Shown: piece by piece, positions 42,373 to 48,699 of the stretch | How the letters are laid out: each line of letters begins with the position of its first letter | Position numbering within the stretch: position 1 is the stretch's first letter | Assembly (NCBI GenBank): GCA_963833095.1 | Contig: CAWHWQ010000001.1 | Span: 1 to 64,000 of the forward strand | DNA length: 64,000 bases | Source: Vulcanimicrobiota bacterium | GTDB lineage: Bacteria > Vulcanimicrobiota > Vulcanimicrobiia > Vulcanimicrobiales > Vulcanimicrobiaceae | Reading direction: 5' to 3' | Notes under the pieces: generated by a model | Databases searched by the model: none | Seen by the model: the letters and a program-made list of their open reading frames with translations, nothing else | What the model was told of the DNA's origin: nothing | Made by a program: the position numbers and the translations under genes

Positions 42373-43164
42373 TTAATACCAGCCGAGCAAGCGGACTTCC
42401 CCGCTTACCGCGGCAGCCGCGGCTTTGGCTGCTTCCTCGGCCTCACACTCGAGTTCGGCATAAAAGATGTACTCGAACGGACGACCGGGCAGTGGGCGCG
42501 CCACTAGGGCCCGCAGGTTCAGGCCGCGCTCGGCGAAGACGCCGAGCGCCGAATGCAGGCTGCCCGGCTGGTGCGGGAGGACGAACGCCAGCACGGCCCG
42601 CCCGAGGCGTCTCCGGGCGACGCCCTCGCAAGCGATTACAAAGAAGCGCGTGAAGTTTTCCGCCTCGTCTTGGATCGCGTCGGCTAGAACCCGGCCGCCA
42701 TAACGCTGGGCACTTGCCGCCGGACCGATGGCGGCGTGCGCGCGGTCACCTTGGCGAACGATATCTTTGACCGCGCCCGCAGTGTCGGCAACCGCGACGA
42801 CTTCGACGCCGGGGAGCGAGGCAAGAAAGCGCCGGCATTGCTCGAGTGCGACCGGATGCGATTCGACGCGCCGAACACCGTCGAGGCTCGCGCCCTCGAT
42901 CCCGATGAGCGTTTGCACGATCCGATGCACGGTTTCGTCGACAATCGCAACGCGCGGATGCATATAAAGTAGATCGTAGGCGCGCGTCACCGGGCCGTGG
43001 ATGCTGTTCTCGCAGGGAAGCAGACCCACGGGTATCTCGCCGGTGTCGACCGCTTCGACAAGCGCATCGAACGTCGGATAGCCGCGCGATTCGATTGCGC
43101 CGAACAGACGTGCCGCCGCCTCCTCGCTGAAGGCCCCAGGCTCACCTTGAAATCCGACGAGCAT
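42373..43164 (-). CDS. pheA: Prephenate dehydratase
   Basis: FQGEPGAFSEEA, ENS..G.V, SHPVAL.QC, ENFTRF, C-terminal ACT domain; start ATG 43164. Confidence 0.92.
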   Translation of the reverse strand: MLVGFQGEPGAFSEEAAARLFGAIESRGYPTFDALVEAVDTGEIPVGLLPCENSIHGPVTRAYDLLYMHPRVAIVDETVHRIVQTLIGIEGASLDGVRRVESHPVALEQCRRFLASLPGVEVVAVADTAGAVKDIVRQGDRAHAAIGPAASAQRYGGRVLADAIQDEAENFTRFFVIACEGVARRRLGRAVLAFVLPHQPGSLHSALGVFAERGLNLRALVARPLPGRPFEYIFYAELECEAEEAAKAAAAAVSGEVRLLGWY

Positions 43165-43903
43165 CGAGAGCCTTTCTAAAACCCTGGAGTTCGCTTTGCA
43201 GTGCATCGCGGTTGGCGGCAAAAATTTCGTCCCACATTTGCGGCGACGACCGGCCCAGGCGCAGCAGCTCGCGCGCCGCCGGTCCGCAGAGCGCATCCAC
43301 CAGCGCAGGATCGCTCGATGCTCGCTCGCTCACGCATTGTGTGAATGCGTAGGCGATAAACTGCGGCAGGTGCGAGGTCAGCGCGACGATTGCATCGTGA
43401 TCGGCTGCATCCACGGCGAGTGACGTCGCGCCGAGCGCCTCGACGAAGACGCGTGCTTGCGCGCTGCGTAGTTCATCTGAGGTCGGCACGAAACACCAGA
43501 TGCGGCCTTCGAACAGATCGCTACGCGCCGCGTCGGGGCCGCGCCGCTCCGCACCGGCCATCGGGTGTGTCGACACGAAGGTCGCAATTCCATCGGCTGC
43601 TCGTACGATTGGCGCTTTCACCGACGCCACATCAATGATGAGCTGATCGTCGCGCAGCGCACGCCACCGCAGTGATGCAACCTCTTCGAGCGTGCCGCTA
43701 ACATGCGCCGCGATGACGACGACATCGGCGCCACCATAGATTTCATCGCGCTCGGCAATGCGATCGATCGCGCCCTTTCGCAATGCGCCGCTTGCGGCAG
43801 CCGGGTCGCGGTCGTATCCCAGCGCCTCCCAGCCGCGTTCGCGCGCGGCAAGCCCGATCGATGCGCCGATCAATCCGGTGCCGATAATGCCAACGCACGG
43901 CAT
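43142..43903 (-). CDS. tyrA: Prephenate/arogenate dehydrogenase
   Basis: GTGLIGAS, DVASVK, HPMAG.E, HD..VALTSHLP. Confidence 0.9.
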   Translation of the reverse strand: MPCVGIIGTGLIGASIGLAARERGWEALGYDRDPAAASGALRKGAIDRIAERDEIYGGADVVVIAAHVSGTLEEVASLRWRALRDDQLIIDVASVKAPIVRAADGIATFVSTHPMAGAERRGPDAARSDLFEGRIWCFVPTSDELRSAQARVFVEALGATSLAVDAADHDAIVALTSHLPQFIAYAFTQCVSERASSDPALVDALCGPAARELLRLGRSSPQMWDEIFAANRDALQSELQGFRKALDARRISR

Positions 43904-43906
43904 CGG

Positions 43907-44305
43907 CTAGGTCGTCGTCGTACGAGCGAGGTCGGGACGCAACACGACCGCTCCGTCGAGATAGACGTGTTCGATTGCATCGATCGTTCGCGTGGTATTG
44001 ACGTGCATCAGCACGCGAATGACGCGCTCGAGCGACCCGGGAACGTCGATTTCGCAGAAATGCAACATTGGCACGTTCGTCCAGCCCATCTCACGTGCGC
44101 CCAGCGCAGGGAAGACCGCGCGCAGGTCCGGCGTGAGACTGAAAAGCACGGAAGCGATATCATCGATCTCGACCTCATTCCGCTCGATCATTGCAGTCAG
44201 GAGGCGTTTGGTGGCGTCGACGATCGCCGCGCCCTCATCACGCTCGACGGTGATGGCGCCGCGAATACCGCGTACTTTGCAGCCGCGCCACTCCGCTTCT
44301 TTCAT
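43907..44305 (-). CDS. aroH: AroH-class chorismate mutase
   Basis: VRGIRGAITV, T.DL...FPA..AR, HVYL.GA..LRPDL. Confidence 0.93.
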   Translation of the reverse strand: MKEAEWRGCKVRGIRGAITVERDEGAAIVDATKRLLTAMIERNEVEIDDIASVLFSLTPDLRAVFPALGAREMGWTNVPMLHFCEIDVPGSLERVIRVLMHVNTTRTIDAIEHVYLDGAVVLRPDLARTTTT

Positions 44306-46067
44306 ACGCGGACCTGCGGTTGCGACCAGATGTCGATCTGCTCGAGGTCGCGCATGATCGTGCCAAAGTCGTCGAAGGTGAGCGCCTGTTCCTTATCACT
44401 CTTGGCTTCGGGCGGATTGGGATGCACCTCGATGAGCAACCCGTGCGCGCCGACGGCTTTGGCCGCGCGGCACAGCGGGCGCACCCAGCGGCGCACGCCG
44501 ACCCCGTGGCTCGGATCGACCCACACCGGCAGATGCGAGCGCTCCCGTAACACGGGTACCGCCGAGAGATCGAGCGTGTTGCGCGTGGCCTGTTCGAACG
44601 TACGAATGCCGCGTTCGCACAGAATCACGTTGGGATTGCCTTCGGAGAGAATGTACTCGGCTGCGGCAAGTAGCTCGTCGACCGTTGCGGCTAGGCCGCG
44701 CTTGAGCAACACCGGACGCCCGCAGCGCCCGACGGCTTTGAGCAGATCGAAGTTCTGCATGTTGCGCGCGCCGATTTGCAAAACGTCGATTTGCGCGGCC
44801 ATGCGCTCGACCTGATCGATCGTCATCACCTCGCTCACCGTCGGAAGGCCGCTCGCACGCCCCGCTTCAGCGAGCAGCGACACGCCTTCCCAGCCCAGGC
44901 CTTGAAAGGCATACGGGCTGGTGCGCGGTTTGAACGCACCGCCGCGCAACATCACCGCGCCGTGCGCCGCGACCGAACGCGCCGTGTCGAGAATCTGTTC
45001 GCGCGATTCGACCGAACACGGGCCTGCCACGATCGTGAACTCGCCGTCGCCGACGCGCACGCCGCCGATCTGCAGCGTGGTCCCCGGCGGATTTGCCGCG
45101 CGCGAAACACGTGGAAAGGGCGAATCGGCAATCGCGGGCGGCGGAGCGATTTCACGCACCAGTTCGACCAGCGCTTTAGGCGGATCGTCGTTGCGCCCGA
45201 TCGGCTCGCCGACATGCGCGTCGTAGCTCCCTAGCACGGTCAGCGTCTTGCAGGCCTTCTTCAGCTCAGCGAGCGCGTCCGCGACATTCGCATCGTCGAG
45301 ATCACCGTCGAAGTCGACATAAAAGACGCGCTCGGTTCCGTAACCCAGGTGCGGCTTGGACTCGAGCTTGTCGCCGTTGATATTGCGGCTGGCGAGAATG
45401 GCCAGCGCGCCCGCGAGCGACCCCGTGCGCTCCTCGACGGAAAAGATCAGCGACGTCTTGCGCCGCGCAGCTCTTTCGCTAGCGCAAGCACCGGGTTCGA
45501 TGCGCCGCTGTGGCGCGGCCGTACGATGAGGAAGCGCGAGTAGGTACGCGGGTCGTCGCTGCAGTGCGTGGCCAGTTCAATCAAGTCGTAGATCGAGGCG
45601 GCGGCGGGTGAAGCAAGGGCGGCGATCGCCGGATTGCCGCCCCGCGCGACCTCGCGCGCAGCGACGCCGGTGTCTTCGCATGGAATCGCGCGCGCATGAT
45701 CGAGTCCGGCAAGAAACGCGCCGCACTCCGCGAGCACCAGCGGATGGGCGAGAACTTCGCGCACGTCGCGCAGTTCCGCACCACGCACGCCGAGCAGACG
45801 GTGGTCGGTGCGCCACTGAATCTCAGAGACCGGCACGAGATCGAACTCGGCAAGCAGGTCGTAGCCTTCGCGTACCGTCCCGACGATCGCATTCTCGATC
45901 GGGATGACCCCGATCGCGGCACGCGCACCGGCCACGGCGGTTGCCATCTCGCGAAAGCTGGGAAGGCCCACGGTCGGCATTTCGATGCCGTGTTCGCGCA
46001 AAAAGTGCCCGAGCACGAGCTGCGAGTAGGCTCCATCGACTCCTTGGTAGACCGCTGTCATTGCCAT
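44302..46067 (-). CDS. aroF: Fusion of prephenate-dehydratase-like domain + ACT domain + class I-beta DAHP synthase (one frameshift near 45465)
   Basis: DAHPS motifs AGPCSVE, RGGAFKPRTSPY, QIGARNMQNF, CERGIR, DPSH. The same frame extends upstream through an ACT domain (KTSLIFSV...LESKP...FYVDFDG) with no start codon of its own. PDT-like ORF 45447-46067 abuts it in the adjacent frame. Confidence 0.85.
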
Positions 46068-46078
46068 TGCCCCTGATT

Positions 46079-46116
46079 GAAAAAGAACGAGTCCCCACTT
46101 CGGCGGGGACTCGTTC
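46079..46116 (-). terminator. Attenuator terminator upstream of the aroF fusion
   Basis: Perfect 12-bp stem gaacgagtcccc/ggggactcgttc followed by TTTTTC, about 12 nt before the start codon. Confidence 0.88.
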
Positions 46117-46157
46117 GTGCATTTTACGCGTGTTCTGCGGCTTCTTGCCGGCCAGCC

Positions 46158-46238
46158 TTATGCGTGCGCGAATCCCCTTGGGCCACCCAGGCCAAAGTAG
46201 TAATACCAAAACGCGTAGCTAAAGCTGTGGACAGTCAC
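46158..46238 (-). CDS. 26-aa aromatic-rich leader peptide MTVHSFSYAFWYYYFGLGGPRGFAHA
   Basis: GTG 46238 to TAA 46158; 8 aromatic codons within codons 6-15, six consecutive; followed by antiterminator/terminator. Too short for the ORF track. Confidence 0.88.
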   Translation of the reverse strand: MTVHSFSYAFWYYYFGLGGPRGFAHA

Positions 46239-46285
46239 GTTGCGGCTATGCAATCACATCCCGGCGGCGCCTGTCAAGCCGCGAG

Positions 46286-46669
46286 CTAGGAATTGAGCAC
46301 CTTTCGGAGCTCTGCGGCGATCTCGGTATGGCTGTAGCCGCGGTGGCGCAGCGAATCCACAAAGCGTAGCGCCGCGTCGGCAAGGGCGTTCGATCGCGCG
46401 CGCCGGTCGGTCGCGGGCGTCTTACTCGCCACGCGGGTCCCACGCCTCCCCTCGCTGACCAACCACCCCGCATCCTGGAGATCCGCGTAGGCTCGCGCCA
46501 CGGTGTTGGGCGCAACGCCTAAATCCCCCGCGAGTTGGCGCACCGTCGGCAAGGGCGCATCGGGCGCGAGCGTACCGCGCTCGACCGCCGCACGAATCTG
46601 CTCGAAGATCTGTTGATAGGGCGGCGTTTCGATTTGCGGATCAACCGCGATGAGCGCGTCGTCGGACAT
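46286..46669 (-). CDS. GntR-family regulator, YtrA-like
   Basis: PPYQQI, LPTVRQLA.DLGVAPNTVARAY, GRRGT.V; short C-terminal domain. Confidence 0.92.
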   Translation of the reverse strand: MSDDALIAVDPQIETPPYQQIFEQIRAAVERGTLAPDAPLPTVRQLAGDLGVAPNTVARAYADLQDAGWLVSEGRRGTRVASKTPATDRRARSNALADAALRFVDSLRHRGYSHTEIAAELRKVLNS

Positions 46670-46673
46670 TTGC

Positions 46674-47441
46674 CTAACGAAAAACCACGATCGCGCGACG
46701 CACGAGCAAAGGGACGACGAATCCGCACCACGCGCCGAAAACTAGGACATAGGCTATCCTATGGAGCAGCGTGCCCGGCGTATGCACCGAGACCATTGCA
46801 ACGAAAACCAGCGGGACGCCCATGCCGACGGCAAACAATCCGAGCACGCGACAACGGCGGATTCGATTATCGACATAAAGTTCGGTTTCTGGATCGCTGC
46901 CCGACATAATCGACGCCATTGAGTTTGACGCGACGGCAAAGCCAAACGTCGCGAGCGCGGCGAGCGTGACGCAGATCGATGCAATCGCGGATTGCGGCGC
47001 GTCGAGAAAGGCCAGTGGCGCGACGGATACTATCGCCGCGGCTGGATACCAAGGCAGCGGAACGACGGAGGTCAGGGTGCGTGGCGCGAGCGCTGCGGCG
47101 CGCGTCGCTCCGCGATTGCGAAGTCGCAGATACGACGTTCCCAAACTTGTCACGAAGGCGCACGTGCCGAATCCGTAGCCGATGATCCCGCTAAGTGCGC
47201 CTCCGAGTACCGCGGCGCCGAGCAGAACGTTGATGATTCCCGGGATATACCAGGCGGCGAGCGGAAGCGCTTCGAGCTCTTGACGGCGCGCGACGGTTTC
47301 ATAGAGTCCTGGCAAGCAATCGTCGCGGAAGTACCGGCGCAGATCGTTCAACGCGCGGGCGCGTACGACCAAGTACATACCGAATCCGACGAGGAAGAGC
47401 CCAAGATACCAACGTTCGAACGCCATGTTCCAAATCATCAT
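46674..47441 (-). CDS. Multi-pass membrane protein co-transcribed with the GntR gene
   Basis: About seven hydrophobic segments; 4-nt gap to the gntR gene. Confidence 0.7.
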   Translation of the reverse strand: MMIWNMAFERWYLGLFLVGFGMYLVVRARALNDLRRYFRDDCLPGLYETVARRQELEALPLAAWYIPGIINVLLGAAVLGGALSGIIGYGFGTCAFVTSLGTSYLRLRNRGATRAAALAPRTLTSVVPLPWYPAAAIVSVAPLAFLDAPQSAIASICVTLAALATFGFAVASNSMASIMSGSDPETELYVDNRIRRCRVLGLFAVGMGVPLVFVAMVSVHTPGTLLHRIAYVLVFGAWCGFVVPLLVRRAIVVFR

Positions 47442-47480
47442 TGTATCTATATACTAATACAAACCTAGGTTTTGTGTCAA
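47441..47480 (-). promoter_or_regulatory. Promoter with overlapping palindromic GntR/YtrA-type operator
   Basis: TTGACA-N18-TAGTAT; palindrome TTGTAT-N10-ATACAA (47441-47462) covers the -10 and the start. Confidence 0.7.
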
Positions 47481-47559
47481 TCCCTTAGAACAATGGCTCA
47501 ACGCTGCGCGTTGACCTTTAGCGTTCGGCCTTTGGCCGATCCGCCCACGGAATGAGACG

Positions 47560-48699
47560 TTGAAAGATAGACTAGGCGTACTTGATGGGATGCGCGGTAT
47601 CGCCGTGCTGCTCGTGCTGTGGTACCACATTTGGGAGATCTCGTGGCTGCCTGCGCCGGAACCGTGGCTGCAATGGATTCCCGAAACGGGCTTCATCGGC
47701 GTCCATCTCTTCTTCTTTCTGAGCGGCTTCGTCATTACGTTTCCGTTCGTGCGCGCGCAGTTCGCGGGCGAGCCGCAGCCGGCGTGGGGCCACTTTGCGT
47801 GGCGGCGCTTCATCAAGATCGTCCCATCCTACGTGCTCTCGATCGTGGTCGCATACGCGATTGGCTATGATGTGCTGTGCCGCGCGGGCGCGGCGCCTTG
47901 GCAAGAGATCGTCACCCACCTGCTCTTCATCCATACCTGGTTTCAATCAACGTACGGGTCGATCAACGGCGTGCTCTGGACGCTCGCGGTCGAAGTCGAG
48001 TTCTATCTGATCTTTCCGTTGGTGTGGTGGTGCTTTTCGCGGCGCCCATTGCTGACCGTCGTCGTCATGATCGCGATTTCCGAGCTGTGGCGTATGCACG
48101 CGGCGCAGTGCTGCTTTGCCGATCAGATGCCGCTGCTGGTTGAAAACCTCCCCGGCTATCTCGACATCTTCGCCTGCGGAATGCTCTCCGCATGGCTGTT
48201 CGCACGCTTTGGCCACCAGCTGCGTGCGCCGGGCATATCGCTCGTTATGCCGATGCTCGCCATCGCGGGCGCCTGGCTCCTGTGCACGCTCCTGATTCAC
48301 ATGTTCGACCATCGCATGGATCCGCAGTGGCAAACGGCGCTGCAGATTTATACGCGCCCGCTGTATGGCGTGAGCTTCGCCGCGATCGCGATCGGCTCGC
48401 TGGCGGCCCCGCGCGCATGGCAAGCGCTGCTCGCGAATCCGCCGCTGCGCTTTCTCGCCATCATCTCATACAATCTCTACCTGTATCACCAACTAGTCGC
48501 TCGCGAGATGGTCAACAACCACATCCCGGCATATTTCGGCGATCCGCACTACGATCCGGTATGGCGGGTCCGCTACACGATCCTCGCCTTCATCGTGACC
48601 GTCGTGCAGGCGGCAATCGTGACCTATCTGGTGGAGCGCCCGCTCCTGCGCTTGCCGCAACCGCGTCTTCTTTCACGTATACGGGGGCACTCACCGTGA
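47560..48699 (+). CDS. Acyltransferase family 3 (OafA-like O-acyltransferase)
   Basis: LDGMRGIAVLLV..YH, FFFLSGF, WTLAVEVEFY, SYNLYLYH, VERP. Confidence 0.9.
   Translation: MKDRLGVLDGMRGIAVLLVLWYHIWEISWLPAPEPWLQWIPETGFIGVHLFFFLSGFVITFPFVRAQFAGEPQPAWGHFAWRRFIKIVPSYVLSIVVAYAIGYDVLCRAGAAPWQEIVTHLLFIHTWFQSTYGSINGVLWTLAVEVEFYLIFPLVWWCFSRRPLLTVVVMIAISELWRMHAAQCCFADQMPLLVENLPGYLDIFACGMLSAWLFARFGHQLRAPGISLVMPMLAIAGAWLLCTLLIHMFDHRMDPQWQTALQIYTRPLYGVSFAAIAIGSLAAPRAWQALLANPPLRFLAIISYNLYLYHQLVAREMVNNHIPAYFGDPHYDPVWRVRYTILAFIVTVVQAAIVTYLVERPLLRLPQPRLLSRIRGHSP

Follow-up and report, generated by a model that had tools for sequence, protein, structure and literature searches.

The window, a stretch of 64,000 nucleotides from contig CAWHWQ010000001.1 of a Vulcanimicrobiota bacterium (assembly GCA_963833095.1), carries on its minus strand an operon encoding a fused prephenate dehydratase (PDT)-ACT-3-deoxy-D-arabinoheptulosonate 7-phosphate (DAHP) synthase, a chorismate mutase, a prephenate dehydrogenase and the prephenate dehydratase PheA. 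According to its sequence, the short element heading this operon is very probably a ribosome-mediated (leader-peptide) transcription attenuator. It is most likely a switch of the textbook kind that is new in the phylum Vulcanimicrobiota. The constituent sequence elements, their conservation in relatives and the genes located downstream were observed directly, and they provide the phylum of this uncultured soil bacterium (Vulcanimicrobiota/Eremiobacterota) with a regulatory element that is open to experimental testing.

In the direction of transcription, the element begins with the -35 hexamer TTGACA (46272-46277), followed at a distance of 18 nt by the extended -10 sequence TGaTTGCAT (46248-46256). 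The leader open reading frame (ORF), which encodes MTVHSFSYAFWYYYFGLGGPRGFAHA, comprises 26 codons (46158-46238) from a GTG at 46238-46236 to a TAA at 46160-46158, all parts of the element being located on the minus strand. A purine-rich Shine-Dalgarno sequence is missing from the 9 nt between the -10 sequence and the GTG, and this short distance suggests that the leader ORF is either leaderless or preceded by a 5' untranslated region (UTR) of 1-3 nt. The control codons 6-15 (46194-46223) read TTT AGC TAC GCG TTT TGG TAT TAC TAC TTT and specify F S Y A F W Y Y Y F, a cluster with four Tyr codons, three Phe codons and one Trp codon. In a six-frame translation of the genome (2,806,132 bases with a G+C content of 61.9%, 5.6 million residues), the leader is the sole place where 8 aromatic residues fall within ten consecutive positions, the next densest segments being one with 7 and 53 with 6 aromatic residues. 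The densest aromatic segment of the genome is hence found directly before its aromatic amino-acid operon. With respect to codon choice, all Phe control codons are the rarer synonym TTT (33% of the Phe codons in long ORFs), and the Tyr control codons are mixed, with one TAT and three TAC.

The leader ORF is followed by a stem-loop of 14 pairs (9 G-C) with a 4-nt loop (46085-46116; -26.2 kcal/mol for the hairpin) and by the T tract TTTTT (46080-46084), which ends 12 nt before an ATG at 46067 and 18 nt before an ATG at 46061. The latter ATG is located 8 nt after the Shine-Dalgarno-like sequence AGGGG of the first structural gene (46070-46074), which is conserved as CAGGGG in relatives; it is probably the true start of this gene, since most relatives possess only the corresponding ATG. 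On the other side, a GntR-family gene on the minus strand ends at 46286. An initial annotation of this DNA had already proposed an attenuator at this place, and a reading of the sequence confirmed the features it had listed, namely the TTGACA, the leader ORF, the complementarity between GGGGATTCG (46177-46169) and CGAGTCCCC (46113-46105), which includes one G-U pair, and the motifs TACGCGT (46217-46211) and ACGCGTA (46131-46125). The terminator with U tract that it described is also present (46116-46085), with a stem of 14 pairs instead of 12 bp.

The distribution of the element was determined by a protein-anchored search of 41 related genomes, all 41 of which gave a DAHP synthase match (a tally that includes the unpublished genome G036) and which yielded 30 loci. 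Among these genomes, the leader is present at 18 of 18 fusion-gene loci with upstream sequence (including L018); the same-genus genomes G003 and G007, in which the sequence stops short of the upstream region, and G016, for which no locus was taken, are outside this count. In other Vulcanimicrobiota species the leader was detected at seven of nine fusion loci (L031, L033, L034, L035, L036, L040 and L042). In total, 27 fusion loci with upstream sequence were examined and 25 leaders were found, all of them in Vulcanimicrobiota (Eremiobacterota). An aromatic short ORF was found in the 1.5-kb flank at none of ten non-fusion DAHP synthase loci of related families, a negative result of little weight because a leader may lie past the flank or the gene may have its place inside an operon.

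Within the genus, Phe and Tyr replace each other in the cluster (FSYAFWYYYF, FSFAYWYFYF, FSYAYWFYYF). Between genera, the peptides (for instance MTFSFSYYAYYFWTSAGRAESCLRA, MTNARWYSYAYYFGLRPGWLGACCA, MTNVAYAYWYYCSGPEGR and MARSSWSYRYFYASRDALRRGRPLP) are unalignable except for the aromatic cluster, which is retained, as in MTFSFSYYAYYFWTS.. and MTNARWYSYAYYFG... Tyr occurs at least twice in each of the 25 leaders. Trp is present in 24, mostly as a single residue whose position varies, and Phe in 23, the leaders without Phe being L031 and L042. The sequence TTGAC was found in all 23 leaders analysed, the pattern TGnTTnnAT of the -10 sequence recurs in leaders of other genera, and the distance from the first T of the -35 hexamer to the start codon (GTG or ATG) is 37-40 nt in 22 of the 23 leaders. 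A strong terminator hairpin was likewise found in 22 of 23, and that of L042 was located by hand. The conservation that the initial annotation had proposed to look for upstream of orthologous genes is thus present for the small ORF and its aromatic codons.

An alignment of the sequences from 15 relatives revealed two classes of positions. The mean pairwise identity amounts to 0.91-0.98 for the -35 hexamer (0.98), the -10 sequence (0.91-0.95 in the genus), the aromatic codons, the terminator and the RNA segment around the stop codon (segment 2, 46153-46177; 0.93-0.95 in the genus), and drops to 0.65-0.78 in the promoter spacer, in codons 1-5, in the hairpin of codons 16-20 including its loop, and in the spacer preceding the terminator. 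Segment 2 is nearly invariant at every codon position, synonymous sites included. As far as can be judged from the alignment, this is the conservation pattern of an RNA switch that is read by the ribosome, and not that of a functional peptide.

The alternative folds of the leader RNA were computed in silico. Segment 1 (46212-46227), which provides the 5' strand CAGCUUUAGC..CGCG of the 1:2 (anti-antiterminator) helix, overlaps control codons 6-9, and a small hairpin, GGCC-UGGGU-GGCC (46181-46193), is contained within codons 16-20. Segment 2, which includes the stop codon, can pair in two directions: its strand CGCG..GC.UAAGGCUG (46170-46153) pairs with segment 1, and its strand GGGGAUUCG (46177-46169) together with GCAU (46163-46160) pairs with segment 3. 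Segments 3 and 4 occupy positions 46085-46122, where AUGC (46122-46119) and CGAGUCCCC (46113-46105) constitute the 3' strand of the antiterminator. In the minimum free energy fold of the ribosome-free RNA, codons 4-9 are paired with the stop-codon region in the 1:2 helix, and the terminator also forms.

The effect of a ribosome was modelled by masking the covered nucleotides and folding the nascent RNA up to the terminator loop. When the ribosome was placed at the first or the last control codon, the helix GGGGAUUCG:CGAGUCCCC, lengthened by GCAU:AUGC, was formed and occupied 10-12 of the 14 nt of the terminator 5' arm (-28.7 kcal/mol for the last control codon). Once the ribosome was moved to the stop codon, none of the 14 arm nucleotides was paired (-2.3 kcal/mol), and the terminator with its -26.2 kcal/mol is therefore free to form. 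The same behaviour was obtained for 23 of 23 leaders: stalling at the last control codon sequestered 7-13 nt of 5' arms that are 10-16 nt long (-21 to -37 kcal/mol), and a ribosome at the stop codon left only 0-9 arm nucleotides sequestered (-0.3 to -11.4 kcal/mol). These folds agree with the initial annotation, which had placed the antiterminator strand in the last leader codons and had expected the antiterminator upon stalling.

Among the 15 relatives, the 1:2 helix is paired in 87-100% of the cells of the alignment and compensatory changes occur at two of its pairs; it shares only about 5-6 nt with the antiterminator strand. The small hairpin is paired in 98% of the cells and shows one compensatory pair (GGUC/GACC in L014), its stem being kept while the loop and the encoded amino acids vary, and the pairing of the terminator reaches 99.5%. 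Covariation is limited; it is found in the 1:2 helix and the small hairpin and not in the antiterminator itself. For 13 representative leaders, the pairing of segment 2 with the terminator arm was set against 500 dinucleotide shuffles, which it surpassed in all four leaders of the genus that were tested (z = -2.3 to -4.2). A further pairing put forward in the initial annotation, UACGCGU in the control codons with ACGCGUA downstream, was discarded as unsupported: 82% of the cells pair, compared with 70-78% when the 3' partner is slid by two columns, the covariation score was reached by 85 of 500 shuffles, and the compensatory changes belong to the different 1:2 helix.

On this basis, the following course of events is proposed. 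Transcription would start about 7 nt after the extended -10 sequence, which would place the 5' end of the mRNA at the GTG or 1-3 nt before it, and a ribosome would load on the leader without a Shine-Dalgarno sequence; we infer this start point and the translation of the ORF from the arrangement of the promoter and the GTG. If Phe-tRNA, Tyr-tRNA and probably Trp-tRNA are plentiful, the ribosome would reach the TAA and cover GGGGAUUCG, so that the 14-bp terminator could form and transcription would stop before the operon. If a charged aromatic tRNA is short, the ribosome would stall in codons 6-15 and break the 1:2 helix, thereby freeing segment 2. The freed GGGGAUUCG, extended by GCAU, would then capture the terminator's 5' arm ahead of synthesis of the 3' arm, and RNA polymerase would continue into the operon. 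If the leader is not translated at all, both the 1:2 and the 3:4 helices would form and transcription would terminate. The response to each single amino acid would follow from the codon content: a sensing of Phe and Tyr by the leader is plausible, and that of Trp, through a single codon retained in 24 of 25 leaders, is conjectural.

The leaderless start that this model assumes appears to be common in the organism. When ORFs of at least 100 aa located after a promoter-like site were surveyed, starts 6-9 nt past the -10 sequence were preferred, with 18 cases in these four offsets and 8 of them at offset 9, against a background of 76 cases over the 50 offsets from 11 to 60, or about 1.5 per offset. 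This peak indicates that leaderless mRNAs are probably frequent, and together with the fixed start spacing in 22 of 23 leaders it lends weight to the near-leaderless translation that the initial annotation had suggested. The 255-aa ORF upstream of the GntR gene also fits the leaderless pattern, with a promoter at 47480-47451 and an ATG at 47441 on the minus strand.

Moreover, a promoter-anchored scan of the genome for short ORFs, in which the downstream genes were assigned by Pfam, detected four further units of promoter, leaderless short ORF and terminator that carry runs of cognate codons. The peptide MISMFVSTTTTTTTTTTTVVRCRLT contains 11 consecutive Thr codons and is followed by a terminator and a gene for a PALP enzyme, which may be threonine synthase, the Pfam match being to PALP only. 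The peptide MILASLLLVVLALIS.. is rich in Ile, Leu and Val and precedes a thiamine pyrophosphate (TPP) enzyme of acetolactate-synthase architecture; MFAPTMMTCSMCIIQMNK.., with Met, Thr, Cys and Ile, precedes a homoserine dehydrogenase; and MSNLHIMCHMCPV.., with Met, Cys and also His, precedes an NMT1/THI5-type binding protein. The units are located on contig C4 from 207013 (L111) and from 209223 (L113), on contig C5 from 569956 (L114), and on the minus strand of C5 with the gene at 453842-455530 (L112). In the leader of the homoserine dehydrogenase gene, as in the aromatic one, the codons belong to several end products that share a branch point. A terminator-anchored scan of the genome missed the four siblings; besides the aromatic leader, its one result was a Thr-rich ORF at C1:+303768. 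Judging from these units, leaderless leader-peptide attenuation is evidently a routine device of this organism, and ribosome-based sensing is suggested as the main control of amino-acid biosynthesis in its lineage.

Several observations weigh against an attenuator of this kind or limit its reach. Among nine distant leaders, five (L016, L017, L031, L034 and L042) have a segment 2:arm duplex no better than that of shuffled sequences, and the other four are borderline (shuffle fraction 0.01-0.06). Eight of the nine antiterminator pairs never vary within the genus and the ninth changes on one side only, so that covariation gives this helix no support. A simple promoter scan of the window did not list the leader promoter, because position 2 of the -10 hexamer is T and not A. 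With respect to distribution, no aromatic leader is visible at the Vulcanimicrobiota fusion locus L032, L038 has only a short and partly masked ORF, L034 lacks both a canonical start at the expected place and a Trp codon, and the fusion genes of metagenome-assembled genomes (MAGs) labelled Actinomycetota and Myxococcota have no aromatic leader within 600 nt upstream. The sensing itself is not proved by codon content, as is illustrated by the aroR leader of Corynebacterium glutamicum, whose operon is unaffected by Tyr supply according to the accessible text of PMC11802643.

Finally, the RNA evidence consists of a single contig from one RNA library, the only RNA run (a metatranscriptome) in which a small share of the stretch was present. 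This contig of 228 nt, with 4 differences, spans positions 46186-45959 and includes the 3' part of the leader and the terminator before it runs into the gene. It fits a read-through transcript and is a weak hint at best, since DNA carry-over is possible and contigs show neither ends nor levels. The Logan contigs of the DNA run X1 and of the RNA run X20 both stop at 46186, and the next X1 contig starts at 46236. Positions 46186 and 46236 were considered as RNA ends and rejected; they coincide with the ends of DNA contigs of X1 and are therefore assembly breaks. The gap between them contains the aromatic codons together with the variable loop of the hairpin, which suggests that microdiversity among strains breaks the assembly graph there.

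The best-placed alternative accepts the same device with fewer inputs, in that Tyr and/or Phe are sensed and the Trp codon, or another kind of codon, has no regulatory weight. We regard this as a serious possibility, with a likelihood well short of even. The cluster contains one Trp codon against four for Tyr and three for Phe, Tyr is the sole residue that is both universal and multiple over the 25 leaders, and Phe itself is missing in L031 and L042. Furthermore, in the accessible text of PMC11802643 the operon behind the Phe-Tyr-Phe leader aroR responds to limitation of Phe and not of Tyr, although both amino acids are encoded. Joint sensing of Phe, Tyr and Trp had been predicted by the initial annotation; this was overstated, as its basis is the codon content with one Trp codon, and the aroR case shows a codon kind to which the operon is unresponsive. 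On the other hand, Trp accounts for about 1% of the codons in long ORFs and is kept in 24 of 25 leaders at differing positions relative to Tyr while the rest of the peptide has diverged. The trpE gene in this genome is without a leader of its own directly upstream, and a ribosome stalled at codon 11, as estimated from footprint sizes, would cover codons 6-15 and free segment 2 as a stall at any other control codon would. The dense mix of three codon types is a natural test of whether a single Trp codon can be an independent input, a question that aroR leaves open.

A second alternative holds that the ORF is incidental, the hairpin either terminating transcription of the GntR gene or belonging to a structured 5' UTR with a protein, a tRNA or a metabolite as its ligand (T-box, TRAP-like or riboswitch). 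GC-rich leaders fold readily, and the z-score for the fold of the whole leader is only -1.9. This explanation is nevertheless improbable, since a conserved promoter is located between the GntR stop codon and the leader ORF, loci with a different upstream sequence (L006, L007, L014, L016 and L017) still possess the leader, the adjacent codons drift around a conserved frame, start position and set of aromatic codons, and the genome contains the four sibling leaders with cognate codon runs. Additionally, a cmscan search of positions 44000-48000 against Rfam with E values up to 10 returned five chance-level matches to unrelated families and none in the leader. Slightly less probable still is that the ORF serves to make an aromatic-rich small peptide with a function of its own, for example a membrane peptide or the precursor of a modified peptide. 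Phe/Tyr swaps are conservative for proteins too and the C-terminal GFAHA is conserved within the genus. Outside the genus, however, the aromatic cluster is all that remains; the C-terminal codons that are conserved show no change at synonymous sites and fall on the antiterminator strand; the residues encoded in the hairpin change freely while the stem is retained; and the neighbours examined are aromatic-pathway enzymes, the GntR regulator and the 255-aa protein without Pfam match, with no maturation or export gene among them.

Taken as a ribosome-mediated attenuator, the element can be set beside known systems. The aroR-aroF attenuator of C. glutamicum was reportedly described by Neshat and coworkers in 2014. 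The aroR leader peptide (Phe-Tyr-Phe) precedes the aroF operon, as stated in the accessible parts of PMC11802643, PMC4046766 and PMC7356990, and according to the first of these sources transcription of the operon increases under Phe limitation and Tyr supply is without effect. Both systems have a short mixed-aromatic leader upstream of a DAHP synthase operon, in which ribosome stalling raises transcription in C. glutamicum and is predicted to do so here. The leader in the window differs by its much denser cluster (8 aromatic codons in 10), by the presence of Trp and by its occurrence in the phylum Vulcanimicrobiota, and unlike the aroF operon the downstream genes begin with a PDT-ACT-DAHP synthase fusion and include chorismate mutase, tyrA and pheA. 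The likeness is a functional one only: the leader sequences were not compared, and the peptides are too short for a homology test. The aroR-aroF case, a mixed Phe/Tyr leader before a DAHP synthase gene, was missing from the known cases listed in the initial annotation, which therefore rated the novelty of the element too highly.

The enterobacterial attenuators pheL-pheA, trpL-trpEDCBA and pheM-pheST respond to one amino acid each and have Shine-Dalgarno starts, as summarized in the accessible text of PMC11802643. They share with the element described here the 1:2, 2:3 and 3:4 logic, control codons in segment 1, a stop codon next to segment 2 and an intrinsic terminator just ahead of the structural gene. 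They differ from it in that the present leader mixes three amino acids and is predicted to be leaderless or nearly so, and there is no similarity in sequence or to their Rfam models. The E. coli leaders thrL (Thr, Ile) and ilvL (Ile, Leu, Val) are multi-amino-acid leaders and thus also examples of a single leader with codons for several end products of a branched pathway; here the pathway is the aromatic one, and the branch-point enzyme catalyses the first common step for Phe, Tyr and Trp. A further comparison is offered by the Acholeplasma motif uORFC-13-1 before aroF, for which the accessible text of Brewer et al. 2021 (PMC8632094) predicts an upstream ORF with Phe codons next to a terminator. 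The two have in common a predicted aromatic-codon ORF and a terminator upstream of a DAHP synthase gene, whereas uORFC-13-1, which is also only predicted, is AT-rich and Phe-only and belongs to a different lineage and structure.

A literature search for an aromatic leader reading three amino acids gave, in the texts accessible, no description beyond aroR and uORFC-13-1, and no paper mentioning attenuators in Eremiobacterota was found. The data indicate that leaderless mRNAs can support classical attenuation in bacteria other than the Actinobacteria, and with respect to annotation such leaders can mark transcription starts and regulons of MAGs. A broader interpretation is offered tentatively, as rather less likely than its opposite: the leaderless leader may integrate all three aromatic amino acids at the committed step and belong to a genome-wide set of leaderless, 70S-initiated attenuators that includes a Met/Thr/Cys/Ile sensor. 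If so, the sensing of all end products of a branch point by leader peptides would be a general design rule in this uncultured phylum.

The operon begins with the gene for the PDT-ACT-DAHP synthase (type I) fusion (44302-46067, minus strand, as are all genes of the operon), with Pfam matches to PDT (E = 8.7e-38; 46067-45447) and DAHP_synth_1 (E = 1.8e-77; 45237-44302). The frame of the DAHP synthase remains open upstream as far as 45576, and from about 45444 it reads like the ACT region of a prephenate dehydratase, an assignment made by eye from the translation and not by a domain search over that part. In this assembly the gene is broken into two frames near 45447-45480. Relatives possess a single open frame of 586-643 aa through all three parts (588 aa in L002), and the first gene is therefore a PDT-ACT-DAHP synthase fusion that is interrupted here. 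Contigs from three DNA metagenome runs, one per run, lack one letter at 45468 and one at 45474, and dropping these two letters merges the frames; accordingly, the break is not a trait of the family and probably reflects either an indel error of the assembly or a lesion at the strain level. The initial annotation had thus rightly recognized a DAHP synthase fusion downstream of the leader and, as the Pfam match in the first gene indicates, its position at the entry step of the aromatic pathway; what it had not given is the identity of the fusion and its split into two frames.

The fusion gene is followed by the genes for a chorismate mutase of the AroH type (43907-44305; Pfam CM_1, E = 1.3e-44), the prephenate dehydrogenase TyrA (43142-43903; Pfam PDH_N and PDH_C) and the prephenate dehydratase-ACT protein PheA. 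The longest ORF of the latter extends over 42373-43296, with the PDT match starting at residue 47, and its true start probably lies further in, near 43164. The products of the operon serve the synthesis of Phe and Tyr and the common first step of the aromatic pathway.

The sole chorismate-binding (trpE-like) gene found in the genome is located at C1:166471-167232 on the minus strand. Directly before it there is neither a leader peptide nor a terminator; another ORF ends 14 nt ahead of its first start codon. Fusions in which a full PDT with its ACT-like region is joined to the N-terminus of a type-I DAHP synthase (586-643 aa) occur in Vulcanimicrobiota and in the MAGs labelled Actinomycetota and Myxococcota. 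A literature search for a PDT-DAHP synthase fusion yielded no description of this architecture in the texts accessible; the fused protein may be a bifunctional enzyme, or the fusion may supply an allosteric module that responds to Phe.

Short ORFs rich in Phe, Tyr and Trp were also noticed at clostridial and other Bacillota loci (the mutually similar L070, L076, L082, L089 and L097, as well as L087, L105 and L108), where they are led by a Shine-Dalgarno sequence, as in ..KFFNFYFIWGYFYFSASYLFYKK... A stem-loop and a T run, recognized by eye, come next, followed by a long ORF lying immediately before the DAHP synthase match or overlapping it. Five of these Bacillota peptides have the pattern YYF..WGYFY.SA..YKK in common.

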